NCBI GenBank assembly: GCA_963780885.1
Contig: CAWAEO010000002.1
Span: 889,665-953,664, forward strand
Direction of reading: 5' to 3'
Source: Nitrospirota bacterium
Lineage (GTDB): Bacteria > Nitrospirota > Thermodesulfovibrionia > Thermodesulfovibrionales > Dissulfurispiraceae
DNA length: 64,000 nt
Shown here: positions 4,197 through 24,838 of the stretch, piece by piece
Layout of the letters: every line of letters starts with the position of its first letter
Position numbering within the stretch: position 1 is the stretch's first letter
The notes under the pieces: model-generated
The model's database searches: none
What the model saw: the letters and a program-made list of their open reading frames with translations, nothing else
What the model was told of the DNA's origin: nothing
Position numbers and translations under genes: made by a program

Positions 4197-4484
4197 AGAT
4201 CCTCCTTATGATTAAGTTGTTTTTTAAGTATACCAAAATTATCACCGTTTGTCCCGCAAGCCGAAAAAAATGAAGTTGAGAGGTCATGGGTCAAAGAAAT
4301 AGAAAGTGACTTTTTGTTTTACCCATAACCAATGACCTATCACCTATAACCAGTATTTATATTTTTTGTTTGGATATTTGCATGCGGGAATGAGTATAAT
4401 ACCAACGATTGGTTGCAGTAATTTTTTAATTGGGTCTGCTGCCGGCAAGGATGCGCAGGCGGCATAATGGTTTAGCTGGTCAGA

Positions 4485-5273: not shown

Positions 5274-5350
5274 ATTACTTTATTAAAGTTTTAGGCGGAT
5301 TTGCCGATGCTAATAATTACACAATCAATAATAACGAGGTGATATAAATA

Positions 5351-6658: not shown

Positions 6659-9053
6659 GTCGCTGCTTTTAATGTTGTTGGCGGTCATCGGCGCCGTCGT
6701 TATGCCGGTTGCCGCTGAGGAGCATGCACCGGGCCCGCAACTGCTGGAAACAAAACATCAGCCCAAAATTCTCTCAGAACAATTCGCAGATCGACTGGGA
6801 CCTCTACAGGATATTGTCGAAAGGGAACTGCGCCAACACGAGCTCCCCGGCGCGGTTGTAGTTGCGGGAACACCTGAAGGAGTTGTTTACCGCCGCGCCT
6901 TCGGATACCGTTCCCTTGAGCCCAGACAGTTGCCTATGACCGTTGATACCATTTTTGATCTTGCATCCCTTACCAAGGTTGTCGCAACCACAACTGCGAT
7001 AATGCAGTTGGCTGAAAAAGGTAAGCTGCGTCTCGATGCTCCGGCTGCCAGGTATTGGCCGGGATTAAAGGCAAATGGCAAAAAAGACATTACTGTTCGT
7101 CAGTTGCTGACCCATTATTCCGGACTCAGACCCGACCTGGACCTGAAGCCGGGGTGGTCCGGCTACAAGGCCGCTATGCGCATGATTGTTCGGGAGAAGC
7201 CGGTTTGCCGTCCGGGTACATGTTTTATTTATAGTGACATCAATTTCGAAATTCTGGGTGACATCGTGCGGAGGGTTTCGGGAAAGCCGCTTAATGTATA
7301 TTGTTCAAAAAATATTTTTAAACCTCTCGGCATGTCCGATACGCTCTTTAACCCGTCACGGCGCTTGCGTGACCGAATAGCTCCGACCCAGTATTATGAG
7401 GGGAATATGCGCTGCGGTACGGTCCATGACCCTGCGTGCCTGAAGATGGGCGGCATGGCGGGCCATGCCGGACTTTTCTCCACTGCTGATGACCTGTCCC
7501 GTTTTGCCCTGATGCTCCTTAATGGGGGCAGAATTGGCCATGTGCGAATTCTGAAAGCTGCTACGGTTGAGACAATGACAACCCCTCAGTCACCGCCGGG
7601 CAAGGGGTCGCTGAGGGGCTTGGGATGGGATATCGGGCCTCCCCTCGCATCGAACCGCGATGAACTGCCTCCGGTAGGATCTTATGGGCACCTGGGCTAT
7701 ACGGGGACCGCGCTCTGGATCGATCCTGTTTCAAAAGTATATGTAATCGTGCTTACCAACCGGGTACACCCTGACGGCAATGGAGACGTAAAGGCGTTGA
7801 GGGCCGATATTAAGGCCCTTGTTGCCGATGCTATAGGGACCGTTTCCCCGGAGCAGATCATGACCGGGCAGCCGTTGCTGACCCGCTACTTTAATTTGCC
7901 GGATACTATTGCCTCGTTGAGCGAAGGCAGGGTATTGACAGGAATAGACGTGCTTGGCGAAGAAAATTTTTCATCCCTCCTGGGAAAGCGTGTGGGACTT
8001 ATCACCAATCATACGGGCCTGGATGCGGGGGGGAGGAGCACTCTCGACCTTTTTTACAGAGCTCCCGGAGTGCGGCTCGCTGCCGTGTTCAGCCCTGAAC
8101 ACGGGCTATCCGGCAAAGTTGATGAGAAAGTCGGTTCTTTCAGGGAGCCGAGAACAGGACTGCCTGTTTACAGTCTTTACGGTGAGGTAAGAAGGCCGAC
8201 CGACCGCATGCTCAATGGGTTGGATGCTCTGGTGTTTGATATCCAGGATGCCGGCGTCCGCTTTTATACCTACATCAGTACTATGGGATATGCTATGGAG
8301 GCCGCTGCGCAAAAAGGGATCGATTTTTATGTCCTTGACCGTCCTGACCCGATCAATAGCTCACTGGTGCAGGGGCCGGTTATGGACAGTAACCTGGCAT
8401 GTTTCACCGGCTACTTCCCGATGCCGGTGCGGTACGGTATGACTGTCGGCGAACTGGCAGAAATGTTTAACAATGAATATAAGATCGGCGCGAAGCTGCA
8501 CGTCATAAAGATGCAGGGGTATCGGCGCACCGATTGGTACGATGAGACCGGACTCAAATGGGTCAATCCATCCCCTAACATACGCAGTCTTACTGAAGCC
8601 ATCCTATATCCGGGCGTGGCAATGGTCGAGGGTGCCAACGTAAGCGTGGGCAGAGGGACCAGGACGCCTTTTGAGCTTCTCGGGGCCCCGTGGATAGATG
8701 CCGGCAGGTTAGTCCAATATTTAAACAACCGTAGAATTGCCGGTGTTCGATTCACGCCTGTCGATTTTATACCGGACAACGATATATATAAGAACAAAAT
8801 ATGCCATGGAATGAAGATTATGCTTATAGACCGCCGTGTACTTGACCCGGCTGTCATGGGAGTGGAGATCGTAGGCGCACTCTACCGGCTCTATCCGCGG
8901 GATTTCCAGCTTGATAACACATTGGGACTTATCGGCGCCCGGAATGTGCTGCAGGCCATAAAGCAAGGCAAGGACCCCCAATCCGTTGCGCTGCTTTGGC
9001 AGAGTCCGCTGGAACAATTCCTTAAACTGAGAGCCAAATACCTGCTGTATTAA
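6645..9053 (+). CDS. Fusion of a beta-lactamase-fold serine hydrolase with a DUF1343/NamZ-type exo-beta-N-acetylmuramidase domain
   Basis: 802 aa. The N-terminal half carries S-x-x-K (LASLTKVV), YSD/YSN-like YSDINF, and HLGYTG (KTG-like). The C-terminal half carries GKRVGLITNHTG, FSPEHG, VFDIQDAGVRFYTYIS, LDRPDP and GRGTRTPFE. Confidence 0.85.
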   Translation: MVRGKSLLLMLLAVIGAVVMPVAAEEHAPGPQLLETKHQPKILSEQFADRLGPLQDIVERELRQHELPGAVVVAGTPEGVVYRRAFGYRSLEPRQLPMTVDTIFDLASLTKVVATTTAIMQLAEKGKLRLDAPAARYWPGLKANGKKDITVRQLLTHYSGLRPDLDLKPGWSGYKAAMRMIVREKPVCRPGTCFIYSDINFEILGDIVRRVSGKPLNVYCSKNIFKPLGMSDTLFNPSRRLRDRIAPTQYYEGNMRCGTVHDPACLKMGGMAGHAGLFSTADDLSRFALMLLNGGRIGHVRILKAATVETMTTPQSPPGKGSLRGLGWDIGPPLASNRDELPPVGSYGHLGYTGTALWIDPVSKVYVIVLTNRVHPDGNGDVKALRADIKALVADAIGTVSPEQIMTGQPLLTRYFNLPDTIASLSEGRVLTGIDVLGEENFSSLLGKRVGLITNHTGLDAGGRSTLDLFYRAPGVRLAAVFSPEHGLSGKVDEKVGSFREPRTGLPVYSLYGEVRRPTDRMLNGLDALVFDIQDAGVRFYTYISTMGYAMEAAAQKGIDFYVLDRPDPINSSLVQGPVMDSNLACFTGYFPMPVRYGMTVGELAEMFNNEYKIGAKLHVIKMQGYRRTDWYDETGLKWVNPSPNIRSLTEAILYPGVAMVEGANVSVGRGTRTPFELLGAPWIDAGRLVQYLNNRRIAGVRFTPVDFIPDNDIYKNKICHGMKIMLIDRRVLDPAVMGVEIVGALYRLYPRDFQLDNTLGLIGARNVLQAIKQGKDPQSVALLWQSPLEQFLKLRAKYLLY

Positions 9054-9056
9054 TAA

Positions 9057-9224
9057 TTACTCAGCAATTATTGTCCTGTTTTTAATTACCGCCCATTTAA
9101 CATCAACGGACAGTTTGTTCGCCAAATGCTCCGCCAATACTCTTTCCGGCGTCTTTACCGTGTCAGGAATATTTACATCGAAAACCAGCTTGACCGTCAC
9201 CGTGACTTCTTTCCCCTCGCCCAT
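9057..9224 (-). CDS. Hypothetical 55-aa protein
   Basis: An internal ATG at 9224 is preceded by gggagg. There is no recognisable family. Confidence 0.35.
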   Translation of the reverse strand: MGEGKEVTVTVKLVFDVNIPDTVKTPERVLAEHLANKLSVDVKWAVIKNRTIIAE

Positions 9225-9315
9225 TCCTGCCTCCCATGTATCATTGAATAACAGAAATATAAAACACCTGGGATATTCACCGCAAGAGCCGAGCACTCAA
9301 CTCTAATTAACCCTC

Positions 9316-9468
9316 AAACCACAGAGGACACAGAGAAACTCATGGATTTAAGAAGACATAACATCAGATAAGGCCTTCATCTCTGTGCACTCTCCAGTGA
9401 AAGTTAAGTTTTGTCTCTTTTTCTCCGAGGCCTTGAGAGCACAGAGAAAACTCTGTGGTCTCTGTGGT
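9316..9468. repeat. MITE-like palindromic element, copy A (153 bp)
   Basis: The TIRs are aaccacagaggacacagag (9316-9334) and ctctgtggtctctgtggtt (9450-9468). The internal motifs tctgtgcactctc and gcacagagaaaa are shared with copy B. Confidence 0.8.
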
Positions 9469-9574
9469 TCGCTGTTTTAGGTGGTGGATTCTGCTTGAGC
9501 GCTTGGTTGTCAAACCGGGCAGGTTTGAATTAGAATTACGAGTGCTCATATGCGGCAGAAAAGGGAGGCGCTGA

Positions 9575-10621
9575 ATGTCCAAGATCAAATTTGAAACCAT
9601 TACATCTGATTTCAGGATACTGAACCCGTTTAAGAATTTTGCCGAAGAATCTCATCTGGTTGAAGTGAGAAGGGACCCCCTCCTCGGCGATACGAGTGTT
9701 TATAATCCCGTTTTCAAAAATAAGGCGAAATCTTTTTTTGGCGAGTGCGATGCCGAGCTCGTAAGAACATTGGCTGAGGCAAGCGCAAAGGGCTGCATAT
9801 TTTGCGGTGAAAATGTCGGTAAGGTAACGGCGAAATACCCGCCTGACCTGGTCCCGGATGGACGTATACGAGTGGGCGAGGCGGTGCTGTTTGCAAATCT
9901 CTATGCCTCCGGACAATACCATCCTGTTATTTCTCTAAGCAGCGCCCATTTTCTGAAGCTTTCCGAATTCACTCCTGAACTGATCGGGAATGGTCTCATG
10001 GCGGCGCAGAAATTCCTGGACCTGGTATACGTCAAGGACCCGTCGGCAGCATACTCGGTAGTCAGCGCAAATTATCTGTTTCCAGCAGGGGCCTCTTTAG
10101 TCCATCCCCACCTCCAGATGCTAGTTACGCCCGTCGCCTATTCATATCACGAAAGGCTTATCGATTCAAGCCTCGATTATTATCAGAAAAATACTTCGTC
10201 GTATTATTCTGATTTAATCGAAGAAGAAAAGAAAAACTGCTCGCGATACATAGAACAAAGAGGGGCATGGCACTGGCTTACACCCTTCTCCCCGATGGGC
10301 AGTAATGAGGTTATGGCCGTGCATGAAAGAGAGTGCGATTTCAGGATGCTTTCAGAAGCGGACTTACGTGATCTTTCCGGTGGTATTTCCAGGGTGCTCG
10401 CATTTTACGAAAGCCTGGGCCATCTGAGCTTCAACTTTTCACTGTTTGCCGCAGCTGAATCTTCAAAGCAGGGTTTCCATTGCCTGCTAAAAATGATCAC
10501 CAGGCAGAACCTTTATCCCAATTACAGGAATGATGATTATTTTCTCCAAAAAATGCTCCATTCTGAATTGATCATAAATACGCCTGAGGATTTGGCCCTG
10601 AAGATAAGGTCTCTCGAATAA
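9575..10621 (+). CDS. GalT-like HIT-superfamily nucleotidyltransferase (galactose-1-phosphate uridylyltransferase-like)
   Basis: 348 aa. Contains a Cys motif GCIFCGEN and the HIT-like histidine motif VHPHLQM. It has a two-half-barrel length. Confidence 0.6.
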   Translation: MSKIKFETITSDFRILNPFKNFAEESHLVEVRRDPLLGDTSVYNPVFKNKAKSFFGECDAELVRTLAEASAKGCIFCGENVGKVTAKYPPDLVPDGRIRVGEAVLFANLYASGQYHPVISLSSAHFLKLSEFTPELIGNGLMAAQKFLDLVYVKDPSAAYSVVSANYLFPAGASLVHPHLQMLVTPVAYSYHERLIDSSLDYYQKNTSSYYSDLIEEEKKNCSRYIEQRGAWHWLTPFSPMGSNEVMAVHERECDFRMLSEADLRDLSGGISRVLAFYESLGHLSFNFSLFAAAESSKQGFHCLLKMITRQNLYPNYRNDDYFLQKMLHSELIINTPEDLALKIRSLE

Positions 10622-10625
10622 ATTC

Positions 10626-11777
10626 TCATTGCATTTTCCTGATTTTTCCGCCTTTTAAAATCAGGTAGCGACCACCTCTCCAAAGCACTGCCGATCCTAA
10701 AAGACTCCAGATCCAGATGCCGAAGCCCAGTATATCTTTGACCGGCAGGAGGATAAGCCACCGGAGCCATTTTTTAGAACGTATGACGTTCTTACAGATC
10801 ACAAGGGCGAGGCACACTCTCAGACCTATAGCAGCGCAAAGAGCAGTTAATGAAACGATGTCAGGCCCTTGCAGGATAAATAGCAGGCAGGAAATGGGGA
10901 ATACGTAGGTAATGCCGTACCCAATGAAGCCCTTCGGCCTGCAGGCCCTATAGGTGCGGGCCCATCGCATCTGATGCTTCAGGTGCCCGGCTATGCTCAT
11001 TGCACCCGCCCTGTCCTCGAGTACATACCTGGAAAGGATGATCTTATATCCTTTCTGCCATAGCCTGTTGCCGATCTGGTAATCGTCAGCCAGGTAATCG
11101 GCAATAGCTTCAAATCCGCCTATTGCCTTAAGCGCCTCCCGCGAAAAAAGCATCGAAGCGCCTAATCCGAAAGTGACTCCCTCAAGCCGCCTTGCCACCA
11201 GCACAGAGGGGATGAGATCGAGGCCTATCGTAAGGGATTCAAAGGCAGCTCCCGCAGATGCCGGATCGGAAATTTTGTAAAGTGAGGTTACGAGGCCGGT
11301 ATTTTCCCCGCTGAAGTACTCCCCGGCAATGTGCTTTAAATAGGAACCGTCCACTCTCATGTCGCTGTCGCTCACGGCAAACAGAGGATAGCGCGCAGCT
11401 TCCGCCAGCCCATAGAGATTTGACACTTTGCGGTTCGTGCCAAGGCTTCTTTCGCTCACTATAATTTTTACGGCAGATTGTCGTTGCAATTTCTCAGTTA
11501 CGCTGAGCGCTTCATCCTTCGGATCGGTAACTCCCAGAAGAACTTCATATTCAGGATAGTCCTGCTCGCAGAAGCTCTGAATGTTTTCATATAATTCAGG
11601 GTCCTTGCCGCTCAGCGGCTTAAGGATCGAAATCGGAGCTATCGGAGCCGGGGGAATATCTTTCAGCGCCGGCTTCCCCGCCCGGAAGAACTCAATGACG
11701 CAAAAAAGGGCAAACAGACTATAGATGCCGGATGAGATGACCAGTAACAGCGGTATAACAGTGATATTTTGAGTCAT
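10626..11777 (-). CDS. Membrane glycosyltransferase, GT2/GT21 (ceramide-glucosyltransferase/HpnI-like)
   Basis: 383 aa. It has an N-terminal TM and ISILKPLSGKDPELYENIQSFCEQDYPEYEVLLGV. The D-x-D-like motif is VSDSDM, followed by QMRWARTYR (Q/RxxRW) and C-terminal TMs. Confidence 0.75.
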   Translation of the reverse strand: MTQNITVIPLLLVISSGIYSLFALFCVIEFFRAGKPALKDIPPAPIAPISILKPLSGKDPELYENIQSFCEQDYPEYEVLLGVTDPKDEALSVTEKLQRQSAVKIIVSERSLGTNRKVSNLYGLAEAARYPLFAVSDSDMRVDGSYLKHIAGEYFSGENTGLVTSLYKISDPASAGAAFESLTIGLDLIPSVLVARRLEGVTFGLGASMLFSREALKAIGGFEAIADYLADDYQIGNRLWQKGYKIILSRYVLEDRAGAMSIAGHLKHQMRWARTYRACRPKGFIGYGITYVFPISCLLFILQGPDIVSLTALCAAIGLRVCLALVICKNVIRSKKWLRWLILLPVKDILGFGIWIWSLLGSAVLWRGGRYLILKGGKIRKMQ

Positions 11778-12046: not shown

Positions 12047-13432
12047 TCAGCGATCGTCGCCTTGTGATTCTTTTTCCAGCGGCACAACTTTTCCAACTTC
12101 ACGCCTTAAGTAATCAACTATTTTCAGTTTTGCGTATTTTCGTGTCATCTTGCTATCTGCGTGTCCCCACCACTGCTGCATCACCTCAACAGGTAATCCT
12201 TTGTTGACAAGTTGAGTGCCGAAAGAGTGTTTAACAAATTCGTACATAGTTATTTTCAGGCTGTTGTTAGTGGCCTTATTGAAACGCGCTAATCCTCTAG
12301 CAAAAGCACGTGAAAGCGTACAGTAGTTGTAAGGGGCACTGTTAAACTTAAAAACATAATCCAAATCAAAAGACCTCGCAGGCAGCACCGCGAGGGTTTC
12401 AGGCAATAAAGGGTTGTGAATTATCTCTCCCGTTTTTGTGCGCTCACTAAAGGTGTTAAGAGAAAAGCAACTTCGGTAGGTCACCATCATATTTATCAGG
12501 TCTACACATTCCCACTTTAAAGCCCTGGCCTCACACGGACGGCAACCCTGATAAACCATGTACAAGAATATGGGCTGATGTTCCTTTTCAATATATAGTA
12601 GTATGGACTCTTGCACATCCCTTGAGACAGTAACAGGTTCACGCTCAGGAATAACCTCAAGCTTCGGGAAAACAGGTCCGGGTGGAAGAAGTATTCTTTC
12701 GTCTTCAATTAGCCATTTAAAAAAACCACCGAGGTATACCATTTTGACATTCTTTGTAGATGTAGCTCCTCGAAGTGACTGATAGAAGTCCTTTGTATTA
12801 TGAATTTCCCTAACGTCCTTATTACCATAGAATGCAACAAACTGACGGCACTTACTAGCAAGCCCTGTTTTGGTAAATGTCTTTAATCGTGGCTGTTTCT
12901 CTTGTTCCCATCTTGCTATTAATCGGTCAAACTCAAATTCAATTGCTTTTTTGGCTACCCAAACATCAATGTTAAACTTGCCAGGTACGCTCTTCTGTGC
13001 CATGGCAAGGTCATAAAGCGACTGTGCCATATAGTGATTAGTGATCTTCTTACCCTCAAGTGTGGTGGTACGGGCAACTCGTTTACCCTCATCATTAAAA
13101 TAAACAGTGAACCGATCAGGTATCCGATTGAAGTGATTAGGACAGTGATAATACTTATTTTCAGCGTCCCATTTAAAACGCGAGCCACAGTCTTTGCACT
13201 TCCCGTCCGCTTGTATCCCCTTTGACACGGGTGTATACCCTCCACTACAGAATGGAGGAATTATAACCCGTTCAGTTATTCCAGTCAAATCCCCAGTCTC
13301 AACGAGTCGACCTGCTATATTTTTCGGCAGGTGATTGCCTGGACGGGAAGTATTATGTTTGTTTTCCACAATATATATTAGATTTTGATCGACTTGTTTC
13401 GTTGCGTCGTACCGTATTAGGGGAAATTTCAT
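12047..13432 (-). CDS. Tyrosine site-specific recombinase (phage-integrase family) with an N-terminal Cys-rich segment
   Basis: 461 aa. Contains CRPCEARALKWECVDL (Arg-I region), HSFGTQLVNKG and GHADSKMTRKY (the His/Tyr end). The N-terminal region has CKDCGSRF...YHCPNH. Confidence 0.8.
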   Translation of the reverse strand: MKFPLIRYDATKQVDQNLIYIVENKHNTSRPGNHLPKNIAGRLVETGDLTGITERVIIPPFCSGGYTPVSKGIQADGKCKDCGSRFKWDAENKYYHCPNHFNRIPDRFTVYFNDEGKRVARTTTLEGKKITNHYMAQSLYDLAMAQKSVPGKFNIDVWVAKKAIEFEFDRLIARWEQEKQPRLKTFTKTGLASKCRQFVAFYGNKDVREIHNTKDFYQSLRGATSTKNVKMVYLGGFFKWLIEDERILLPPGPVFPKLEVIPEREPVTVSRDVQESILLYIEKEHQPIFLYMVYQGCRPCEARALKWECVDLINMMVTYRSCFSLNTFSERTKTGEIIHNPLLPETLAVLPARSFDLDYVFKFNSAPYNYCTLSRAFARGLARFNKATNNSLKITMYEFVKHSFGTQLVNKGLPVEVMQQWWGHADSKMTRKYAKLKIVDYLRREVGKVVPLEKESQGDDR

Positions 13433-13572
13433 TTAATCGTATTTTACTGATTGGCTTTGTTAGATTTCTTTCCGATTGTATATTGTGTCGATCCTCAGGG
13501 GCGAGCAATTATCCCTCTACGTAAGCGCTCCACGGAATATGTCAATGACTTTGAGACACCCCTCGTCCACAT

Positions 13573-14589
13573 TTAGTGTATTTCCTCTTCAGGAACTGGT
13601 GCTGCCTTTGGCTTGTTAATCCATACGGCCTCAGGAAGTATCGGCGGCACAGGGATTTTTTTAACAAATCTCTCAGGATGTGCTTCATATGCAACGCGCA
13701 GAACTTCACCCCTGGCTATCTGTATTTCTTGTGCAAGGCCGTAATGTACAGCTTCCGGCGTATGCAGGCCGATGCCGGTATGTCGATGCTCTTTGTTGTA
13801 CCAAGGAAAGAAATCCTGGCAGAAGCTCCGAGAGTCTTCGATGCTACCAAACCGCTCAGGAAAGTCCGGCCGATATTTAAGTGTCTTAAACTGGGACTCT
13901 GAATAGGGGTTGTCATCGCTCGTATGCGGTCTGCTGTGGGTCTTCGTGATCCCAAGGTCGGCCAGGAGTAATGCTACAGGTTTGGATTTCATTGATGAAC
14001 CCCTGTCGGCATGAATCGTGAGCTGATCTCTCCCGATATTCTGCTTTGAACAGGTTTCTCCAATGAGCCTCTCTGCCAATACCGCCGATTCTGCAGGGGC
14101 TATCATCCAGCCGACAATATAGCGGCTGAAGATGTCCATGATCACATACAGGTAAAAGTATGTCCACTTTACCGGACCGAGAAGTTTCGTGATATCCCAG
14201 GACCAAACTTGGTTCGGGGCTGTAGCCAAAAGCTCTGGCTTGCTATACACCGGGTGACGCAACTGGTTTCTGCGCTCCTTGACCTCCTTGTTCTTATCGA
14301 GGATGCGATACATTGTCCGTATCGAGCAATGGTATTGGCCCTCGTCCAAAAGAGTTGCATAAACCTCATAGGGTGCCTTGTCCACAAATCTGTCGGTGTG
14401 GAGGATATCAAGTACTCCCTGCCGTTCCTCGGAAGACAGTGAACGAGGCGAGTTCCGATCCTGCACAGGCTCAACAAAGTGGGCATCTTTGCGTGCCTGT
14501 GTGCGGTAAAACCCGGCACGCGCAACATCAAGCGCTTCACATGCATGCTTGATCCCAACTTCAGAGGAAAGGGTCACTGCAGCTTCCAT
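13573..14589 (-). CDS. IS3-family transposase OrfB (DDE)
   Basis: 338 aa. Contains VWSWDITKL...IHADRGSSMKS...SESQFKTLKY and YNKEHRHTGIGL. Confidence 0.92.
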   Translation of the reverse strand: MEAAVTLSSEVGIKHACEALDVARAGFYRTQARKDAHFVEPVQDRNSPRSLSSEERQGVLDILHTDRFVDKAPYEVYATLLDEGQYHCSIRTMYRILDKNKEVKERRNQLRHPVYSKPELLATAPNQVWSWDITKLLGPVKWTYFYLYVIMDIFSRYIVGWMIAPAESAVLAERLIGETCSKQNIGRDQLTIHADRGSSMKSKPVALLLADLGITKTHSRPHTSDDNPYSESQFKTLKYRPDFPERFGSIEDSRSFCQDFFPWYNKEHRHTGIGLHTPEAVHYGLAQEIQIARGEVLRVAYEAHPERFVKKIPVPPILPEAVWINKPKAAPVPEEEIH

Positions 14590-15035
14590 CAGTCGGTCTC
14601 TCCTCCTTCGGGGATCGCAAGCGGGATTCCCAGTATCTCGGATACTTTTTTTTGGATATCTATTATGATCTCTGCCTGTCTAAGACGTTTGATAATCAGT
14701 TCATTGTCCCTGCGGAGCTTCTCATTTTCCGCAATAAGTGGATTGCGAACTGCTTCCTTGCGGCCTCGCTTCTTGGGCTTCAGGGCTGACAGGACTCCAC
14801 GCTCTCTTTGGGTGCGCCACGCATTGAGGTTCGAGGCATACAGTCCCTCACGGCGTAGCAGCGTTCCCATACTTCCGCGTCCCGTGCATGCATCGGCAAG
14901 GGTGAGGATACGCAGTTTGTATTCGGCAGTGAACCTCCGCCTGACTGCCTTATCCGGCACCTCTGGGTTCGGATGGGCTACCGTCAACTTGGCTCCCTCC
15001 ATTGTCTGTGTTTTATTGACCTTTGCAGCTATCAT
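14589..15035 (-). CDS. IS3-family transposase OrfA
   Basis: 148 aa. Contains RRRFTAEYKLRIL and a coiled-coil tail. TGATG stop/start overlap with orfB. Confidence 0.9.
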   Translation of the reverse strand: MIAAKVNKTQTMEGAKLTVAHPNPEVPDKAVRRRFTAEYKLRILTLADACTGRGSMGTLLRREGLYASNLNAWRTQRERGVLSALKPKKRGRKEAVRNPLIAENEKLRRDNELIIKRLRQAEIIIDIQKKVSEILGIPLAIPEGGETD

Positions 15036-15278
15036 TATGATTTTTCCTCCCCGGCCTTCTACTCTAATTTAGCATAAGGGAGGTGTCTCACTTATATTGA
15101 CACAGAGGGCCATCTGCAAAGTCTACTTTCACGGTTAGAGAAAGTTTCGATCCTGTAAAAAAAATGTGAAATTTTGGATAGACAGTTTTGTCGTCTCCAT
15201 TTCTTGACCCTAGTAAAAGAACCGACCATCTACATATAAGATAGCCGGTTCTCTGACCCCAAATATTATTTCTAATTT

Positions 15279-16481
15279 TTAAATATTGGACCCGTCGGAC
15301 GGTAGCGCCTCGATTGCTACCAGCCTGTCACTTATAAGCAGCTCTGTTGCATCAAGTTCTTTGAGTATGGCAGACCTCGCTTTATCCAAGGAGTCCTTCA
15401 TTATAAGCAAGTGTTCTTTTACTGGCGCCTTGCATTCAAGGGCCGCTACATCATCGTTGATAAGGCCAGCCGTATTTTTTACGTCTTTCGATAAGCGATG
15501 AATGAGCATAAATACATGGGTAGCCTGCTCTTGTAGGACATTATGAACCTTGTCAGCCATTTCCTGTAACGATTCGCGATTCTTCCTTTCAAGTTCAGCA
15601 ATTAGTTTCTCCTTTGCCTTGATATCATTTTTTAAAACCTTCTCGTTGTGTTCATGGACATCTTGCAGTCGCTTAACCTCTGCATTATTATCGCCGTGCT
15701 GCGCCAGAACATCCCTTAATCTATCCTGATTGATTTTAAGTTCCGTGGACATCTGTTCGGAGGCAATGAGCTTCTTTTTCAAGCTATCGACTTCTGACTG
15801 TAGGGTGGCAATATTATTGTCACGGTCCTGTATTTGTTGTTGCAGTTCAGGATCTTTTATGATGTCCCTGATCACATTCTTGTGCTCAGTAATGGTTACT
15901 TTTGAGTTATTGACCCCGGCAGCTATTGCTTGTTGGATTTCTATCGGCAGGGCGGTGAAGGCCGTGATAAGATCCGCATCTGACCGCATTTGGAAAACAT
16001 TTTTTTCTATGAGATACTGAAGCTCGGGAACACATTTTTGGCTTGCCCTTACTCGATAAGCTGTTCTTTTTGACCATATCTGATGTATTTTTTCTGTCTC
16101 ATTTATCTGCTGCAATAAGGAATACTGGGCTCGAACAAAGTTCTCGGTTTTCCATGCATCAATAATATCCTCGTCGCTTGAAAAATGCCGTATATAACAA
16201 GGGATTGACGTCCCCAGTTTCTTGGCAGTTTCCGTTCTGCGCCTTCCAATTATTCGGTGATACGTGCCGTCTGAGTTGGGCGTCACCACGATAGGCTGCA
16301 AAAATCCTCTATCTACAACTGACTCTGCCATTTTGTCCATGTCTGCAGATCCAATTGGAAATATCCCATGTTCTTCGAGATACGCAATAGCGGGATGAGG
16401 GTTAATACAGTTTGGGTCGAGATGAATTAGTTGCCCCTCCTGCAGTTCAACTGGTGTTTCGGACTTAGTTGTTTTTTCCAT
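15279..16481 (-). CDS. ParB/Srx N-terminal-domain protein with a long coiled-coil C-terminal region
   Basis: 400 aa. Contains LQPIVVTPNSDGTYHRIIGRRRTETAKKLG (a ParB box GxRRxxA-like motif). The C-terminal ~110 aa are paralogous to the C-terminus of 17323..17925. Confidence 0.7.
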   Translation of the reverse strand: MEKTTKSETPVELQEGQLIHLDPNCINPHPAIAYLEEHGIFPIGSADMDKMAESVVDRGFLQPIVVTPNSDGTYHRIIGRRRTETAKKLGTSIPCYIRHFSSDEDIIDAWKTENFVRAQYSLLQQINETEKIHQIWSKRTAYRVRASQKCVPELQYLIEKNVFQMRSDADLITAFTALPIEIQQAIAAGVNNSKVTITEHKNVIRDIIKDPELQQQIQDRDNNIATLQSEVDSLKKKLIASEQMSTELKINQDRLRDVLAQHGDNNAEVKRLQDVHEHNEKVLKNDIKAKEKLIAELERKNRESLQEMADKVHNVLQEQATHVFMLIHRLSKDVKNTAGLINDDVAALECKAPVKEHLLIMKDSLDKARSAILKELDATELLISDRLVAIEALPSDGSNI

Positions 16482-17325: not shown

Positions 17326-17925
17326 GGAAGAAAAAGAAAATACGAAACCAACGCCGAGCGGCATGCAGCCTACCGAAAGCGTAATAAAGAGAAAGGGAAA
17401 TTTGCTTATCTTTTTATTCCCAATAAAATCGCCAAAATAAAAGATTTCAAGCCGAGTCTGCTTGTTGAAAGATTCGATGAGATTGAAACTGCCTTGAAAA
17501 ATGAAAGGGAAATAATGGATCATAATGTTAAACTCTTGCAAACCGATATTAAGAACAAAGATAAACAAATTTTTGACCTCGAACAGAAAAACCGCGAGGC
17601 GGGACAGGAAATAGCGGACAAGGTTCATAATATCCTGCAAGAGCAGGCTAACCATGTATTTATTCTCATTCATCGCTTAGCAAAAGAGGTAAAAACTACG
17701 GCAGGCCTTATCAACGATACTGTATCGGCCCTCGAATGCAAACCGGCAGTAAAGGAACACCTACTGGTAATGAAGGACTCTCTGGACAAAGCGAGAACTG
17801 CGGTAGTTAAAGAGCTTGATGTAACAGAGTTGCTTATAAGTGACAGGCTGGTAGCAATAGAGGTGTTCGATTCCCACACGCTCCCGCCAAATTTTCTTGT
17901 TAAATCAATCGAACCATCGCCTTAA
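17323..17925 (+). CDS. Hypothetical coiled-coil protein sharing its C-terminal domain with the ParB-like protein
   Basis: 200 aa from the internal ATG (MGRKRKYETNAERHAAYRKRNKEKGK). The C-terminus QEIADKVHNILQEQANHVFILIHRLAKEVKTTAGLINDTVSALECKPAVKEHLLVMKDSLDKAR matches residues of the 15279..16481 product. Confidence 0.55.
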   Translation: MGRKRKYETNAERHAAYRKRNKEKGKFAYLFIPNKIAKIKDFKPSLLVERFDEIETALKNEREIMDHNVKLLQTDIKNKDKQIFDLEQKNREAGQEIADKVHNILQEQANHVFILIHRLAKEVKTTAGLINDTVSALECKPAVKEHLLVMKDSLDKARTAVVKELDVTELLISDRLVAIEVFDSHTLPPNFLVKSIEPSP

Positions 17926-18403
17926 ACATCATGTACATTTTATGTACGTATGAACAACAAGCAGAGGAGGTGATATTCGAACTCACCCTCACCCGCGCCA
18001 GTATTGGGTTTGCGGGAGCGTACTGAACGAGTTCTGAACGAGTAACCCTTTTTATTTAAAAACTGACCCATAGGTCAACGTAAGATCGATTGTCGGTTTC
18101 TGCTTATACGTCGTATAGTTTTTACCAGGGAGAATATTTTCCCTTTCTTCCTGTAATAAACATGACGATGATCTTGAGTAGTAGTGCATGTTTTAAGTGC
18201 AACTCAACACCAAAAGACAAACGTGCCTTGCTATGACAAGTTGGCTTTTGCTGGTAATTTCCGATCATATGCCAACTCCAGGCAGGTATTTATTTTATCT
18301 TTGCTTGATTTTAAAGAATTTTTATTGACCCTGTATACGACAGTGTGGTAGATTTCGGCAGAAAGGACAAGTTGGTATAGTAATATGTTCGACGATATAA
18401 ATA

Positions 18404-19747
18404 ATGGGAAAACATAAATTAAAGAAAGGCCTTGATATTATTGACGCTTTGCTCAGTCTCGGCAAAGCACTCCATTACGCCGCGATTCCAGAGATGCCAC
18501 TCGAAAAGAATCGGAAAAATGCAGAGGCTGTTGACGTAGCTTGGATGCTTGAAGCTGATCAGGAATTCCCCCTTATGGTCTTCGAAGTAGAAAGTAGAAC
18601 TGGGAATACAATTGCAAATAATCCAACCAAAATATATGGAAAAACGACCGTCAAATTTGAGAAACCTTTATTCTTCTTTCACATCTTGATAGATTCCACG
18701 AGTGAGGCATCTAAGGTAGACGTGCTGAAAACTCTTTTTGGAACCCATAACTATCGTATCTATGAACTAGCGCACGATGGTGAAATTAATGCTCTGATGA
18801 AGGATATTCTTTCGCAGCATCGCAGAATTACTAGCAAGTTCGACCTGCGAGAGTTCTATTCTGAATTAAATTCGAGCCACTGGACAGGGATAGATCAATC
18901 TGACATTTTGAAACATATCGAAACCATCGGCTTTGAAAAAAACAGGGGGCAAATACTCCCGGCGTATGCTGCAATAACAGCAGATGATTCATCATGTACA
19001 AAGCATTTTATTAGATATTTAGCATTTCGCGACCAACAAACGCCATCCTATACAGAAGCAGACCAATATCCTACATATATAGGTGGTACTTGGCATTATC
19101 CTCTTCATCTCGCAATTCTCGGCCATATTTCACCGGATAAAGAAGCAACAAAATATCTGGCCCGTCTTATCAATTGGCAGGAGAAGTCTTATTCTTTCAC
19201 TCAAATCGGTCCACATTTTAAGCTGTCAATGGACTATGATTGTTTTATTGTAGGCCAGGCTGGATTTCTCTGGGCCGTCATGGCTACCTTGTTCGCAGCA
19301 AATTCGGAGGCAGTCCAATATATTTCTAAGCAATGTCTCGAAATATTTGAGAGCATTAAAGACAAACACAAGATATTTTCATTTTACACAGCATTATGGC
19401 TTCTTCATATCTCGACCTTGACGCCCAAGACAACGCAGACCTATGAGCTCGCACGCGATCATATCAACAGCAACGGTGGCATTTCGGCCAGTGTGCTTTA
19501 TTATCCGCCGGGCATTATATACGTTGAGCAACCCGGTAACTGGTTGAGGGAAGAAGTCGATTTAATTGATGTGCCGGAATATGATCAATTTATCATGTCA
19601 AAAGAATTTATTAAGACTACGACCGATGACATATTGACACTAACGATTAAGGTATTAACAGATATACTTGGCCCTGAATCATATTCTGCTGATCTTGTCC
19701 GCAATATGAATAAGGAAGCCCGAAAACATCTGCATGAACTGCATTGA
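18404..19747 (+). CDS. Orphan 447-aa protein; the N-terminus is possibly a PD-(D/E)xK-like fold
   Basis: No family recognised. The N-terminal VDVAWML...PLMVFEVESRTGN...K resembles a D...E-x-(E/K) nuclease core. This is inference only. Confidence 0.5.
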   Translation: MGKHKLKKGLDIIDALLSLGKALHYAAIPEMPLEKNRKNAEAVDVAWMLEADQEFPLMVFEVESRTGNTIANNPTKIYGKTTVKFEKPLFFFHILIDSTSEASKVDVLKTLFGTHNYRIYELAHDGEINALMKDILSQHRRITSKFDLREFYSELNSSHWTGIDQSDILKHIETIGFEKNRGQILPAYAAITADDSSCTKHFIRYLAFRDQQTPSYTEADQYPTYIGGTWHYPLHLAILGHISPDKEATKYLARLINWQEKSYSFTQIGPHFKLSMDYDCFIVGQAGFLWAVMATLFAANSEAVQYISKQCLEIFESIKDKHKIFSFYTALWLLHISTLTPKTTQTYELARDHINSNGGISASVLYYPPGIIYVEQPGNWLREEVDLIDVPEYDQFIMSKEFIKTTTDDILTLTIKVLTDILGPESYSADLVRNMNKEARKHLHELH

Positions 19748-19818
19748 TTTATCAAATACAAACTCGAAATTTAAAAATGTCGGCTTTTGGCCAGCGTTCG
19801 ACTGAATAGGGAGAGAAA

Positions 19819-20319
19819 ATGACATCAGATTGGATATCTGCAATTAGCGCATTTGCCCAAGTATTAATTGGCATAGGCACCTTTGTATTATCATATGTTC
19901 TTTGGAAGAGCGCGGATCAAAGGTCAAAACTGGATTATATGCGGGGGATTCAACAAGACTGGATTGGATTAAATTCATTAATTCTGTCCAATCCTGAACT
20001 TGCCGAAATATCTGATAGCGTGTTTTTCGGTAACAAACTTCCGACCCAAAATAAGGATGAAAGACTCAAACGTTATATGCAGTACAAAATACTTAATATT
20101 ATTGAATCTGAATATATGGGGAGATGCGCCGGTTTAGTCTCTGATGATTACCATAATGCAATTAGTAACGTTATATTACAGTCAATGCTAACCGACAAAG
20201 ATTTGATTGAAATAATAAAAACTTCTGGATTTCATAATGAGTTTATTGCTCACTGTGAGCAATTGGTAAAGTCAGCAATAAAAGAGGTCGAACAATGTCA
20301 TCCAGCCGACCCGGAATAA
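19819..20319 (+). CDS. Orphan 166-aa protein with one N-terminal TM helix
   Basis: The RBS gggagag precedes it. The TM is ISAISAFAQVLIGIGTFVLSYVLW. The 3' end overlaps the repeat motif ccagccgacccggaataa. Confidence 0.5.
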   Translation: MTSDWISAISAFAQVLIGIGTFVLSYVLWKSADQRSKLDYMRGIQQDWIGLNSLILSNPELAEISDSVFFGNKLPTQNKDERLKRYMQYKILNIIESEYMGRCAGLVSDDYHNAISNVILQSMLTDKDLIEIIKTSGFHNEFIAHCEQLVKSAIKEVEQCHPADPE

Positions 20320-20445
20320 CCGCTTTTCGTTTTCAGTTTGGCGTAAACGTATACATGACTTATCAGGAGTTCAAAGATATCATTGTTAAAGGTTGTATTA
20401 ATGCAATCAATGATAAATTTGCACAAGGAAAAGAAAAGGTTAATC

Positions 20446-21015
20446 ATGGGCTTGTTTAATTTCCTTAAAAAAGACAAAGACAACGATTATAAGCATCACC
20501 TGCTTGATTACTCGGCTAAAATATTTGCTGACGTTTGGGCTACTGCTGAGCTTCTTCGTAAAGAATTGGAATTAGATCAGTTGCAGTGGTTCAAAGTCCT
20601 TTTTGAGTATTTAAATTTAGTTTTGAATCTCACAGACAGAGCAGCTTTCAACAAAATGAGCAATGAAAAAAGGAATAAGCTTATGTCCGAACTTGTAAAT
20701 GTAAGCATTCCATCTGCGGTGGACGCTATTTGTAATAAATGGTCGGCAGACGAGATTAAACAAACGAAAGAAGATTGTCTTTATAACTACAAAGTTTCGC
20801 TTTGGCATTGGGGTAAATATGAAATATTGTATGCCGAGAATGACAAGAAAATGGGCGAAACTGTTTTTTGGGAGTTTAGCAAATACGTCGCAAATTTGAT
20901 TGGCCATACAGATGATATTGCATTTATAATGAAGGCTTTGATTGCTGCCATGCGTGTTTACAAAGATTTGGATGCGTCATCATTCATAGAGAAAATAAAT
21001 AACAGCAGGCCATAA
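20446..21015 (+). CDS. Orphan 189-aa protein
   Basis: An internal ATG (MGLFNFLKKDKD) is chosen. No family recognised. The attC-like palindrome follows immediately. Confidence 0.45.
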   Translation: MGLFNFLKKDKDNDYKHHLLDYSAKIFADVWATAELLRKELELDQLQWFKVLFEYLNLVLNLTDRAAFNKMSNEKRNKLMSELVNVSIPSAVDAICNKWSADEIKQTKEDCLYNYKVSLWHWGKYEILYAENDKKMGETVFWEFSKYVANLIGHTDDIAFIMKALIAAMRVYKDLDASSFIEKINNSRP

Positions 21016-21098
21016 CACCAGCATCCAGCCGACCGCGAATAAGCGTGGTGTGTTTTCAGATTTGAGTCTGTGGCGCGTCGGCTGATGCATCTCGTTAT
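21012..21098 (+). repeat. attC-like imperfect palindrome (87 bp); alternatively a terminal hairpin of the adjacent IS91-family element
   Basis: The left arm is ATAAC-acca-GCATC-c-AGCCGA-c-CGCG. The right arm is CGCG-TCGGCT-GATGC-atctc-GTTAT. This gives 20 paired bp, two single-C bulges and a 4x5 internal loop next to the AAC/GTT boxes, with a 36-nt central loop. Confidence 0.55.
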
Positions 21099-21380
21099 AG
21101 TTTCTCTTGAAAATCTTCACTGCAGACTCTTCTAATAGACTGTTGGTTAGGAGGTGAAATATCGCGTTTCTCGGCCACGCGCATTCATGCGTGTTGCAGG
21201 AAGAAGAACTAAACCGCTAGCGCGGTAGCCCTTCGGTTTGCCGCATTTTATTTGCTCAAGACGAAATTAATTTCCAACCCCAAATAGCCTCTGTAAGCTT
21301 GTTACTGAATCTCGTTACAATCTCCTTTGTCGTACCGTCGGCATGCGCTGACGGAGATCAGTAGCAAGGGAGATTTTGTT

Positions 21381-22226
21381 ATGACAAAGCTCAGGGATCA
21401 AATGATTCAAGACCTTCAGTTGAAAGGCGCCACACAGCAAACTCAGAATATATATCTGAGAGAGGTAAGTAATTTTGCAAAGTACTTCAGCAAGTCCCCT
21501 GATGAGATAACCGAGGATGAGATCAAAGAGTATCTGCTTCATCTCAAGAAGGACAGGGATTTAGCGGATGGCACCTTTCGATTCTATGTGGCGGGCATTA
21601 AGTTTTTATACAGGACGACACTGCAAAAGGAATGGATGGTGGATAAGATCAAGTTTGGCAAACGTAAAAAGAAGCTGCCTGTAGTTCTGGATTTGTCCGA
21701 AGTGCAGGCTCTTTTTTCAGTCACAGAGAATATCAAACATAAGGCCATTTTGATACTCACGTATTCTTCGGGATTGAGAATAAGTGAAACATCACGTCTG
21801 AAAATAACCGATATCGACAGTAAACGCATGATGGTGTATATACGCCAGGGCAAAGGTGGTAAAGACCGTTACTCCATTCTGTCTCAGACCGCCCTGGAGT
21901 GTTTACGCCAATACTGGAGGGACTATCGTCCTAAGGAATGGTTATTTGAGGGACAGACCCAGGATAAGCATATATGCTTAACATCGATACGGAATATCTT
22001 TGTTGATGCCAAGAAGCGCGCCGGCATAACGAAACAAGTCTGTCCTCACACGCTCAGACACAGCTTTGCAACCCATTTGATTGAGGCAGGCACCAGCCTA
22101 CATCATGTTCAGTTGCTTCTGGGACATAGATCTCCTACTACGACAACCGTCTACCTTCATGTCAGCAAGGTGAATCTTGCTCAGGTAGCAAGTCCCCTGG
22201 ATAAAGCTTCCCAACAAACTGCATAG
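21381..22226 (+). CDS. Tyrosine recombinase of the type found paired with IS91-family transposases
   Basis: 281 aa from the ATG with RBS agggag. Contains SGLRISETSRLKITDID (Arg-I), HTLRHSFATHLIEAG and LLGHRSPTTTTVYLHV. Confidence 0.85.
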   Translation: MTKLRDQMIQDLQLKGATQQTQNIYLREVSNFAKYFSKSPDEITEDEIKEYLLHLKKDRDLADGTFRFYVAGIKFLYRTTLQKEWMVDKIKFGKRKKKLPVVLDLSEVQALFSVTENIKHKAILILTYSSGLRISETSRLKITDIDSKRMMVYIRQGKGGKDRYSILSQTALECLRQYWRDYRPKEWLFEGQTQDKHICLTSIRNIFVDAKKRAGITKQVCPHTLRHSFATHLIEAGTSLHHVQLLLGHRSPTTTTVYLHVSKVNLAQVASPLDKASQQTA

Positions 22227-22250
22227 GGCCGTAATTCACGCTCTCTACAG

Positions 22251-23441
22251 ATGCGCACCTCCAACGGCACCGAGGTGGCGGATATATTCCGCCAGTACGG
22301 TCATGATTACAGAGTATCCCATAATATGCCACTCAAGCATTTGCGGGCCATGGGTGCTATTGAGGCATGCAGGACATCACGTCTTGGCGGGCATAAGGAT
22401 AAGTGTGATAACGACGAATGCGGCCACATCGATATATCCTATAACTCCTGTCGTAACCGTCACTGCCCCAAATGCCAGTTCCTGAAGAAAGAGCAGTGGA
22501 TAGAGGCACGGTCTGATGATCTCCTCCCCATACAATACTTTCATGTGGTTTTTACTATCCCTTCTGAACTGAACACCGTAGCCTTAAGGAATCCCAAGAT
22601 TATGTATGATCTTCTTTTCCGCTCTGCTTCAGAAACACTAATAGAACTCGGCAATGACCGTCTCGGTGCCCGTATCGGATTCATCGGCATCCTCCATACC
22701 TGGGGCCAGAACCTTATGGATCATCCGCATATACACTGTGTTGTTACCGGCGGGGGGCTGTCCAGTGACGAGCAACACTGGGTGGCCTGCCGGAAAAAAT
22801 ACCTCTTCCCTGTGAAGGTTATGTCAGACCTGTTCAAGGGCAAGTTCCTCGATTACTTCAAAGAAAGCTATACTGCCCAAAAGCTTGAGCTGACAGGCAG
22901 TATCAGTCATCTGATGAAGCCCCATGTTTTCGAACTATTTATAGGAAAGCTCTACAATAAAAAATGGGTAGCATATTGCAAACCTCCGTTTAACGGCATT
23001 GACGGAGTTCTTCAGTACTTGAGCCGGTATACCCACAGGATAGCCATCAGTAATAACCGTATTCTGAAGGTTCAGGACGGCCAAGTAACTTTCCAGTGGC
23101 GTGACTACGCCGACAATGACCGTTTAAAAGTCATGACACTGGATGCTGATGAGTTCATCAGAAGGTTCCTTATGCATGTACTTCCTGATCGCTATGTAAA
23201 AATCAGACATTTCGGCCTGATGGCAAACAGAAAACGCAAACATAATATCGAGTTATGCCGTCTGCTTCTCGGCAGTGACAAAACAGAAACGATCAAATCT
23301 GAGCCTAAGACCTGGCAGGAACTTATGCTTGAAGTCTCAGGCGTCGATGTCACCAGATGTCCGGTTTGCCGGAAAGGCAGGATGGTGGCGATTGAGGTCC
23401 TGCATTACTTCAGATGCAACAGCCCACCGGGTCAATACTGA
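22251..23441 (+). CDS. IS91-family (Y2 HUH, rolling-circle) transposase
   Basis: 396 aa. It has an N-terminal zinc-binding region CRTSRLGGHKDKCDNDECGH...CRNRHCPKC. The HUH-like motif is HPHIHCVVTGGG and the tyrosine motif is YLSRYTHRIAISN. Confidence 0.88.
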   Translation: MRTSNGTEVADIFRQYGHDYRVSHNMPLKHLRAMGAIEACRTSRLGGHKDKCDNDECGHIDISYNSCRNRHCPKCQFLKKEQWIEARSDDLLPIQYFHVVFTIPSELNTVALRNPKIMYDLLFRSASETLIELGNDRLGARIGFIGILHTWGQNLMDHPHIHCVVTGGGLSSDEQHWVACRKKYLFPVKVMSDLFKGKFLDYFKESYTAQKLELTGSISHLMKPHVFELFIGKLYNKKWVAYCKPPFNGIDGVLQYLSRYTHRIAISNNRILKVQDGQVTFQWRDYADNDRLKVMTLDADEFIRRFLMHVLPDRYVKIRHFGLMANRKRKHNIELCRLLLGSDKTETIKSEPKTWQELMLEVSGVDVTRCPVCRKGRMVAIEVLHYFRCNSPPGQY

Positions 23442-23829
23442 TATGAACGTTGAGCTGAACATAAATCTGTACCTATGCGAAAACTTGATCGTTGGTCGCG
23501 ATATCGGCTTATTGTCAAAAATCTCACATTCCCCGGCGATCAAATCACACTGCGGCCCCTCTGGCCTACCTATATCACTTCCAATCCAAAAGAATCATCC
23601 AATTAAGTCCACAACAAATAAAAAAATAACAGATTCTTATCCAGCTTGGTAAGAACGGGCGATATTGAATCGCCATAACCCGCGGCATAGTTCTTCACAC
23701 GTCATTCCGCAACTTCGCAGCGGAATGACGCTTAACCGTACCAAAGACCTACCGGTACGATATATGGTGTGAGCAGGTATATCATAACGTCTCATCAGAT
23801 TGATCTCTAAGTGTCTCTTATATTAATTA

Positions 23830-24627: not shown

Positions 24628-24838
24628 GTCTCAAAAACACCTGATTATGAGACTCGTAAATCAGACCAGAGAAACGGCTTAAAATAAGGCTTCCAGTAAG
24701 TCATCTTTGAGGGGGATTTTGAGACAGCCTTCAGAGATTGGAAATTAACGGTGTCAGAAAATCAACGCCGAAGTTAACTTTGTCCCGTACCTGCGACCAT
24801 AGCGGAGTGTCTAAATAAATTTGATGCACCTGAAAACC
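24628..24838 (+). repeat. Conserved ~210-bp noncoding element, copy A, upstream of the Gabija-like operon
   Basis: It aligns by eye with the reverse complement of 52228..52455. The shared string includes gtctcaaaa.ca.ctgatt.tgagac ... acggct.aaaataaggcttccag.aagtcat ... gggggattttgagacag ... tcagagat.ggaaat.aacggtgtcagaaaatcaa ... ttaactttgtcccg.acctgcgacca.agcggag. There is one 6-nt indel. Confidence 0.85.

Follow-up and report, generated by a model that had tools for sequence, protein, structure and literature searches.

A small, decaying array of integron-type gene cassettes very probably occupies 18.39-21.10 kb of the 64,000-nucleotide stretch of contig CAWAEO010000002.1 (Nitrospirota) that was analyzed here and is hereafter called the window. 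The array comprises three co-directional orphan open reading frames (ORF1, ORF2, and ORF3) with the attC recombination sites, or remnants of them, that follow each one. It resembles attC-site clusters that lack an integron-integrase (CALIN) and has no integron integrase (IntI) in the window. Judged by most tests, the locus is a group of integron gene cassettes with their attC sites and falls short of a complete integron. Elements of this type are known; the host lineage is an uncommon one. The region had been singled out in an initial annotation, made from the sequence alone, which described a motif, CCAGC(N0-3)CGAC(N1-3)GAATA(A/G), behind each of the three ORFs and an attC-like palindrome around its third copy. 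This proposal of a cassette-like organization with an attC-like third site is backed by covariation, reciprocal covariance models, complementarity of core and inverse core sites, and attC-followed homologs of all three ORFs.

In integrons, a cassette couples a promoterless gene to an attC site downstream of it. This site is an imperfect palindrome, and its bottom strand, once folded, serves as the substrate of the integron integrase. IntI cuts the 3' core site between G and TT, and recombination of folded bottom strands excises or inserts cassettes. The first six bases after the G|TT cut complement the inverse core site of the cassette itself.

The attC site downstream of ORF3

The complete attC site contains the third motif copy and lies at 21008-21102 on the forward strand, as supported by folds, covariance models, covariation, and alignment with the attC site of the aadA1 cassette (attC_aadA1). 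Anatomical criteria for attC sites were taken from PMC5027507 and PMC4889954, the former describing their unpaired features, namely spacers, bulged bases, and loop. Read 5' to 3', the site consists of R'' CCATAAC (21010-21016), an unpaired spacer of 5 nt (21017-21021), L'' with the extrahelical bases C21026 and C21034 (21022-21037), a loop of 36 nt (21038-21073), L' (21074-21087), an unpaired spacer of 6 nt (21088-21093), and R' GTTATAG (21094-21100). In folds of both strands, ATAAC (21012-21016) pairs with GTTAT (21094-21098), L'' and L' form a 14-bp stem, and C21026 and C21034 stay unpaired as single-base bulges. The 87-bp palindrome at 21012-21098 thus has the anatomy that was originally attributed to it.

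The start of the loop (GAATAAaCGTGGTTTGaTTTT) is conserved across attC sites of different metagenomes, including those of the window (21032-21059) and of the related loci L050 (7032-7124), L051 (7433-7528), and L082. In the window this segment forms a terminator-like hairpin followed by a T run. Such conservation is unusual, the terminal structure of attC sites being normally variable. It is conceivable, if unlikely, that the loop in this attC family also serves as a transcription terminator, insulating one cassette from the next.

As a reference we used attC_aadA1, the "59-base element", together with the start of the 3' conserved segment; the sequence was verified by 100% identity in >1,800 plasmids. 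MAFFT aligned attC_aadA1 column for column with seven environmental sites, that of the window among them. Across the R and L helices of this eight-site alignment, pairing is seen in 89% of cells and double changes in 9 of 17 pairs; neither the observed pairing nor the covariation score was matched in any of 500 shuffles, and slid partners reach 24-52% pairing. The result holds on 18 sites, 16-17 of which carry the AAC and GTT outer boxes. The attC-type sites found behind homologs of ORF2 and ORF3 are likewise homologous to those of the window and display compensatory changes in their stems.

Two covariance models were built, R1 from eight seeds including attC_aadA1 and R2 from 18 environmental sites only, with no class 1 site. 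The intact site of the window, a seed of both, scores 85 bits with R1 and 79.8 bits with R2. Additional sites are found by R1 in L050, L051, L049, L082, L086, and L090, always on the strand of the neighboring ORFs. When applied to L089, the 12-kb class 1 integron region (intI1, dfrA1, aadA1) of plasmid pSE08-00436-1, R2 retrieves attC_aadA1 (52 bits, E = 2.5e-13) and attC_dfrA1 (25.7 bits, E = 1.6e-5), both on the correct strand, the sole other match with E < 1 being the reverse strand of attC_aadA1.

The intact site shares with attC_aadA1 the order of boxes (R'', spacer, L'' with two extrahelical bases, loop, L', spacer, R'), the position 3' of a co-oriented gene, and the outer triplets AAC...GTT; the L'' sequences of the two are also similar, CCAGCCGAC in the window and CAAGCCGAC in aadA1. 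It differs in the length of the loop, 36 nt versus ~5 nt, with a loop sequence that is conserved within the attC family of the window. The extrahelical bases differ as well, being C and C (top strand), 7 bp apart, in the window, and C and A, 6 bp apart, in aadA1.

An alternative view is that the palindromes are generic intergenic repeats, of the repetitive extragenic palindrome (REP) or miniature inverted-repeat transposable element (MITE) type, or terminators that resemble attC sites and are not integrase substrates. The terminator-like hairpin with its T run at 21032-21059 and the unusual conservation of the loop would suit such elements, as would a window devoid of IntI and a palindrome family devoid of purine skew. 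However, the 5' end of a cassette is complementary to its own R'' and homology breaks exactly at G|TT (see below), the bulged bases sit on the L'' arm as they do in attC_aadA1, and a model trained on environmental sites alone retrieves textbook attC sites. Moreover, small co-directional ORFs, toxin-antitoxin pairs among them, make up the arrays in which the sites are found. We consider generic repeats or terminators very unlikely.

Several observations nevertheless weigh against reading the locus as an array of integron-type cassettes. Only one attC site in the window is complete, and no other was found in the 64 kb with R1 or R2, the second motif copy being matched in its left half only; the region behind ORF1 neither folds nor scores with either model. 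R' GTTATAG and R'' CCATAAC of the intact site each agree at 5 of 7 positions with the degenerate GTTRRRY and RYYYAAC consensus. The purine skew of the bottom strand, a trait reported for mobile-integron attC sites, is not seen in this attC family (mean GC skew -0.01), in which the bottom strand is just 0.75 kcal/mol more stable on average. The fold energy of the palindrome is modest when compared with shuffles (z = -2.0 and -1.5), and because it is only about two standard deviations better, the fold alone proves little; the support for the palindrome as an attC site comes from comparison with other sites and not from thermodynamics. As the members of R2 were chosen with R1, which has attC_aadA1 among its seeds, the reciprocal model test is not fully independent. 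No IntI, attI, or recognizable Pc promoter is present in the 64 kb. Finally, IntegronFinder discards single attC sites that have no accompanying integrase (PMC4889954).

Three cassette units and their probable decay

A pattern search of the 64 kb returned exactly three matches to the motif, at 19791, 20302, and 21025, all on the forward strand and all where the initial annotation had placed them; shuffled windows (n = 100 shuffles) gave an expectation of 0 matches. Copies 2 and 3 are parts of a 46-nt direct repeat (20299-20344 and 21022-21067, 76% identity), and in both the motif is the L'' arm (CCAGCCGAC) plus the conserved loop start (GAATAA) of one attC family. The exact pattern is found in 0 of 93 related loci, and the generalized L'' box TC(C/A)AGCCGAC is frequent in them.

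Cassette 3 carries ORF3 (20446-21015, forward strand, 189 aa), which has only five homologs among 5.8 billion proteins; L081 and L082 are two contigs carrying them. In L081 the homolog lies between housekeeping genes; in L082 it closes a row of eight small co-directional ORFs that have no Pfam family. A palindrome homologous to the attC site of the window follows the ORF3 homolog in both contigs, the neighborhoods of which are unrelated, and L082 contains more palindromes with (C)ATAAC...GTTATG ends between its ORFs. R'' CCATAAC of the third site is the reverse complement of GTTATGG, a heptamer located 24 nt upstream of where the first gene begins in the homologous two-gene cassette of L081. 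Behind the attC site, an orphan segment of 101 nt (21101-21201, forward strand) that contains a hairpin (21177-21194) and GTTGCAGGA extends to just before a neighboring insertion sequence (IS). It has no homolog among the related loci and presumably either begins a fourth cassette or closes the array.

Cassette 2 extends from 19797 to ~20344 and carries ORF2 (19819-20319, forward strand, 166 aa), whose N-terminus, read by eye, is hydrophobic and a possible membrane segment. The six homologs of ORF2 include proteins encoded in L083 (87% identity), L086, and L087/L088, in different neighborhoods and always with an attC-type site behind the gene. The intact site behind the L083 homolog reads GTCGAAC-AATTT-CATCCAGCCGACCGCG-loop-CGCGTCGGCTGATG-ATTCGC-GTTAGGC; in its arms it matches the third site of the window exactly, and its core GTTAGGC is a canonical GTTRRRY. 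In L086 the homolog is the last of seven small ORFs. The arms of the L086 site are altered on both sides (AGCGGAC...GCCGCT), a second site of that array reads TCTAAC-...-CTCAAGGCCGAC...GTCGGCTTAG-...-GTTAGCT, and the two core sites are GTTAGCC and GTTAGCT. These distributions point to mobility of the cassettes, ORF3 with its attC site occurring in three contexts (the window, L081, and L082) and ORF2 with its site in the window, L083, L086, and L087/L088. Units of ORF plus site sit in differing neighborhoods, instead of being confined to the window with no cassette-like variation.

The 5' boundary of cassette 2 is sharp. Upstream of ORF2, homology between the window and L083 begins exactly at G|TTCGACTG(A/C)ATAGGGAGAGAAAATG, that is, at G|TTCGAC, and the sequences are wholly different before this point. 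The heptamer GTTCGAC at 19796-19802 is also the exact reverse complement (7/7) of R'' GTCGAAC (20287-20293) at the other end of the cassette. This R'' belongs to the left half of the attC site of cassette 2 (20285-20344, forward strand), which corresponds to the second motif copy and continues with the spacer AATGT, L'' CATCCAGCCGACCCGG (20299-20314), and the loop start, where it is cut at ~20343. The half-site scores 19.4 bits with R2 (E = 0.006), only its left half being matched. Directly behind the cut, 20343-20438 encodes on the forward strand the last 32 codons of a 196-aa gene (tblastn, 72% identity over 32 aa, E = 7e-11) that precedes the ORF3 homolog within the same cassette in L081. 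DNA homology between the window and L081 covers 20343-21056 and begins where the 46-nt repeat ends (20344). Because the repeat ends at 20344 and homology to the L081 gene starts at 20343, a deletion must have taken the right half of the second attC site together with ~85% of the next gene. Copy 2 had been described as a site with a decayed right arm; on this comparison its right arm has been cut off, with the remnant gene fused from 20343, and the site is truncated, not decayed.

Upstream, cassette 1 carries ORF1 (18404-19747, forward strand, 447 aa), which combines an N-terminal PD-(D/E)xK-like domain with a C-terminal helical repeat domain. The start of ORF1 is preceded, at a distance of 10 nt, by a core-type (R'-like) heptamer GTTCGAC (18387-18393, forward strand), which is taken as a putative 5' boundary for this cassette. 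The boundary of the ORF2 cassette is marked by the same heptamer, and of the seven GTTCGAC copies in the window, four fall between 18387 and 20293. None of the three ORFs matches a Pfam, NCBIfam, or PADLOC family. ORF1 belongs to a widespread family with 118 homologs across phyla, the closest of which (52% identity) lies in a long co-directional array of L090, where attC model matches follow most genes and one is located at the 3' end of the ORF1 homolog itself. The AlphaFold2 model of ORF1 is confident (pLDDT 92). In its predicted N-terminal domain D44, E61, E63, and K76 are invariant, and this domain matches NucS (2vld) weakly. A profile search of the Protein Data Bank and a Foldseek search with the model gave no significant neighbor, with only weak matches to nuclease folds.

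The L090 array itself (1-11322) contains attC matches between genes that encode DUF3800, the ORF1 homolog, DUF4062, HATPase_c_4, and Shedu-type SduA_C proteins. It is preceded on the opposite strand by a 92-aa Phage_int_SAM_4 fragment and looks like an integron with defense-type cassettes.

Behind ORF1, a putative decayed attC site spans 19763-19802 on the forward strand. It consists of an R''-like CTCGAAA (19763-19769), the L' heptamer GTCGGCT (19779-19785), a 10-nt spacer, and the R' core GTTCGAC (19796-19802), with the cassette junction G|TT between 19796 and 19797. GTCGGCT is also the L' heptamer of the intact site, where it stands at the same distance of 10 nt from GTT, which suggests the right half of an attC site that has lost its left half. 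That the region might be a complete, degenerate attC site was considered and rejected, as it shows no fold (z = +0.9 and +1.2) and gives no score with R1 or R2.

Copy 1 of the motif (19791-19810) straddles this junction. Its CCAGC ends the upstream unit, GTTCGAC is the core site, and TGAATAGG is the 5' untranslated region of cassette 2. Copy 1 is thus not homologous to, and is out of register with, copies 2 and 3, and the resemblance comes from spanning the junction of two units; of the related motif behind each ORF, the statement holds for copies 2 and 3, which are homologous, and fails for copy 1, whose pieces come from two units. One might attribute all three copies to chance resemblance with no shared origin, given that the pattern was defined after the fact with variable gaps, that copy 1 is out of register, and that the exact pattern is absent from the 93 related loci. 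Against this stand the 0 matches expected in shuffles, the 46 nt that copies 2 and 3 share at 76% identity, and the homologs of both copies behind orthologous genes elsewhere. Chance is refuted for copies 2 and 3 and is the likely source of the resemblance of copy 1; as an account of the motif as a whole it has next to no probability.

The cassette array can then be reconstructed as follows. Behind ORF1 there is nothing but an L'-like heptamer and the core site GTTCGAC. Cassette 2 runs from TTCGAC at 19797 through ORF2 and the left half of its attC site, the loop of which was joined by a deletion to the final 32 codons of the first gene in cassette 3. Cassette 3 consists of that gene remnant, ORF3, and the intact attC site (21008-21102). 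Units of this kind would have been assembled by an IntI. The co-directional cassette genes may be read from a promoter-like site at 18325-18354, upstream of ORF1. With a single complete site left and no IntI nearby, the array has probably lost its mobility as a set; the surviving attC site could, at most, still serve an integrase encoded elsewhere. We infer that the array is a fossil: a single site is usable, an integrase is lacking locally, deletions have broken two sites, and an IS lies 101 nt past the last site, the IS insertion probably being a later, separate, and independent event.

The IS91-family neighbor and the integrase question

The IS downstream of the array belongs to the IS91 family, carries an accessory tyrosine recombinase, and is not part of the cassette system. 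It spans ~21202-23738 on the forward strand, its left boundary being uncertain by ~6 nt. At its left end, the inverted repeat IRL GAAGAACTAAACCGC (21203-21217) is accompanied by a small hairpin (21213-21226). The recombinase gene (21381-22226, forward strand, 281 aa) encodes Phage_int_SAM_4 and Phage_integrase domains, and the Y2 transposase gene (22251-23441, forward strand, 396 aa) encodes Y2_Tnp and Zn_Tnp_IS91 domains and scores 454 bits with the NCBIfam model transpos_IS91 (cut-off 125). At the right end, IRR GAAGAACTATGCCGC on the other strand (23682-23696) is followed by an 11-bp hairpin (23700-23730) that co-varies across the IS family and by the terminus CTTAACCG (23731-23738). These features are shared with a subgroup of recombinase-bearing IS91-family elements, which we take to be the ISfinder subgroup with an extra tyrosine recombinase gene upstream of the transposase: here, too, the transposase gene is preceded by a recombinase gene, and the hairpins are subterminal.

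Scanning one genome per species yielded 80 loci with relatives of the transposase, mostly in metagenome-assembled genomes (MAGs) of Nitrospirota/Thermodesulfovibrionia; look-ups of the exact proteins found no record of the transposase of the window or of ORF3. The closest relative of the IS, L001, aligns with the window over 21202-23738 at 84% identity and not beyond, and in genome CAVSHF01 eight near-identical IS copies have precisely this segment in common, their flanks being unrelated on either side. The IS therefore spans ~21202-23738.

With this boundary, the second reading put forward in the initial annotation can be assessed, by which the palindrome would form a terminal hairpin at the upstream (ter-type) end of the IS91-family element and the earlier motif copies would be relics, or surrogate ends, of one-ended rolling-circle transposition events that captured flanking genes. 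One-ended transposition of IS91 and ISCR elements mobilizes sequence upstream of the transposase gene. Consistent with such an origin, an IS91-family Y2 transposase gene lies directly downstream in the same direction, and the motif (CCGGAATAACCG) by eye weakly resembles an arm of the right-end hairpin (GCGGAATGACGC). Yet the palindrome ends 101 nt before the IS and is therefore not its terminal hairpin: the eight CAVSHF01 copies and L001 begin at ~21202 and leave the palindrome outside. The IS furthermore possesses an IRL/IRR pair and hairpins of its own, members of the palindrome family follow homologs of ORF1-3 in contigs without an IS91 gene, and the family aligns and co-varies with class 1 attC sites. 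An IS91 origin of the palindrome is contradicted by these data and is extremely improbable.

Insertion preferences of the IS family were read from 55 insertion sites, at which only G-R-T-T-A-Y at positions -11 to -6 from the left end is conserved, often after a hairpin. Flanks of the family also tend to carry A at -1 and, on the right side, to begin with W-A-C, and many end in a hairpin. Classical IS91 targets GTTC or CTTG; the IS family of the window differs in that its flanks show G-R-T-T-A-Y ~10 nt before the left end. In another genome, members of the same family sit within cassette arrays (L050 and L051), where attC sites lie 0.2-1.1 kb to the right of the IS copies. The motif of the initial annotation was also considered as a target signature of the IS, the flanks of the eight CAVSHF01 copies being TTTCC..GAAATAA-like; this idea was dropped, as the 55 sites share only G-R-T-T-A-Y and no attC site abuts an IS end. 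Joined IS flanks, used as an empty-site query, gave no match among the related loci.

Recombinase-bearing IS91-family elements, with their Xer/IntI-like recombinase, could conceivably be site-specific invaders of hairpin plus G-R-T-T-A-Y sites, including cassette arrays, although we regard this as unlikely. If it were true, the recombinase and not the HUH transposase would pick the insertion point, ~10 nt 3' of a GTTA-type core, and the element would act as a self-mobilizing "super-cassette". Our literature search found no paper on recombinase-bearing IS91 elements targeting attC sites.

As the initial annotation had stated, no IntI-type integrase is adjacent to the array. A tblastn search of the window with IntI1 matched only the IS recombinase, at 29% identity and with the IntI-specific insertion missing. 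With NCBIfam integron-integrase models this recombinase scores 182 bits, compared with a cut-off of 265, and it is closest to Xer-type models. A 461-aa recombinase encoded at 12047-13432 scores 20 bits with the integron-integrase models and is unrelated to IntI. An IntI is nevertheless encoded in a related Nitrospirota genome (L057, 2038-2940, reverse strand), with 42% identity to IntI1 and the IntI-specific insertion, in a frame that appears interrupted. In L053, an intI fragment occupies 2-709 on the reverse strand, and a copy of the IS starts ~30 nt away. Integron integrase genes thus adjoin IS-family copies in Nitrospirota MAGs, as observed in both L057 and L053.

Relation to known systems and genomic surroundings

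By definition, a CALIN has two or more attC sites within 4 kb and lacks an IntI (PMC4889954). The array of the window is like them in its attC-bearing cassette genes, in having no IntI within reach, in cassettes that are unrelated to mobile-integron ones, and in the nearby IS. It differs in that only one site is complete (79.8 bits), a second is a half-site (19.4 bits, E = 0.006), and the third is a decayed remnant that escapes detection, and its formal CALIN membership depends on scores obtained with curated attC models. Compared with mobile integrons, R' GTTATAG is not a perfect GTTRRRY, the purine skew of the attC sites is lacking, and the cassettes hold genes of unknown function in place of resistance genes.

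Arrays of sedentary chromosomal integrons resemble the locus in having one homogeneous attC family and co-directional orphan ORFs. Like them, arrays related to that of the window contain toxin-antitoxin genes (a HicAB-like pair in L050) and defense-type genes (SduA_C and DUF4062 in L090). The window differs from such arrays by holding three units only, with no intI, attI, or Pc, and by their location inside a defense island between two identical IS3-family copies, as opposed to a stable chromosomal platform.

With this locus, integron-type cassettes and a coherent attC family are on record for a lineage that, going by the relatives found, is akin to Nitrospirota/Thermodesulfovibrionia and in which integrons are little described. 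It also illustrates how an array may decay, one attC site having apparently lost its right half and another its left half by internal deletions, with an IS landing downstream. Its three orphan genes find an explanation as cassette cargo within a defense island, and ORF1, with its predicted PD-(D/E)xK nuclease and helical repeat, is a reasonable candidate for a defense or addiction function. Nothing here alters what is known about integrons.

The surroundings of the array are rich in repeats and mobile elements. Two inverted, 100% identical copies (1577 nt) of an IS3-family element with rve and HTH_Tnp_1 ORFs are located at 13533-15109 and 61445-63021. They bracket 46.3 kb that contain the cassette remnant, the IS91-like element, VapBC, OLD plus UvrD (Gabija-like), ABC-3C, and a type IIG restriction-modification (RM)-like gene, and this segment looks like a composite-transposon-like defense island. 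A sequence at 17863-17890, ggtgttcgattcccacacgctcccgcca, resembles a tRNA or tmRNA 3' end in CCA and could be an att-site fragment of the island; ARAGORN and Rfam reported no RNA in the window at gathering thresholds, nor did Rfam over 17500-18400 at E <= 1. A 346-nt inverted repeat (15308-15653 and 17518-17863, 81% identity) lies nearby, one arm of which is a partial inverted copy of the 3' part of a ParB_N-domain gene (15279-16481). A further inverted repeat of ~165 nt (24673-24830 and 52244-52408, 86-90% identity) is found upstream of the OLD-family gene and the RM-like gene, and a direct repeat of ~265 nt links 903-1165 with 38047-38314 (91-93% identity).

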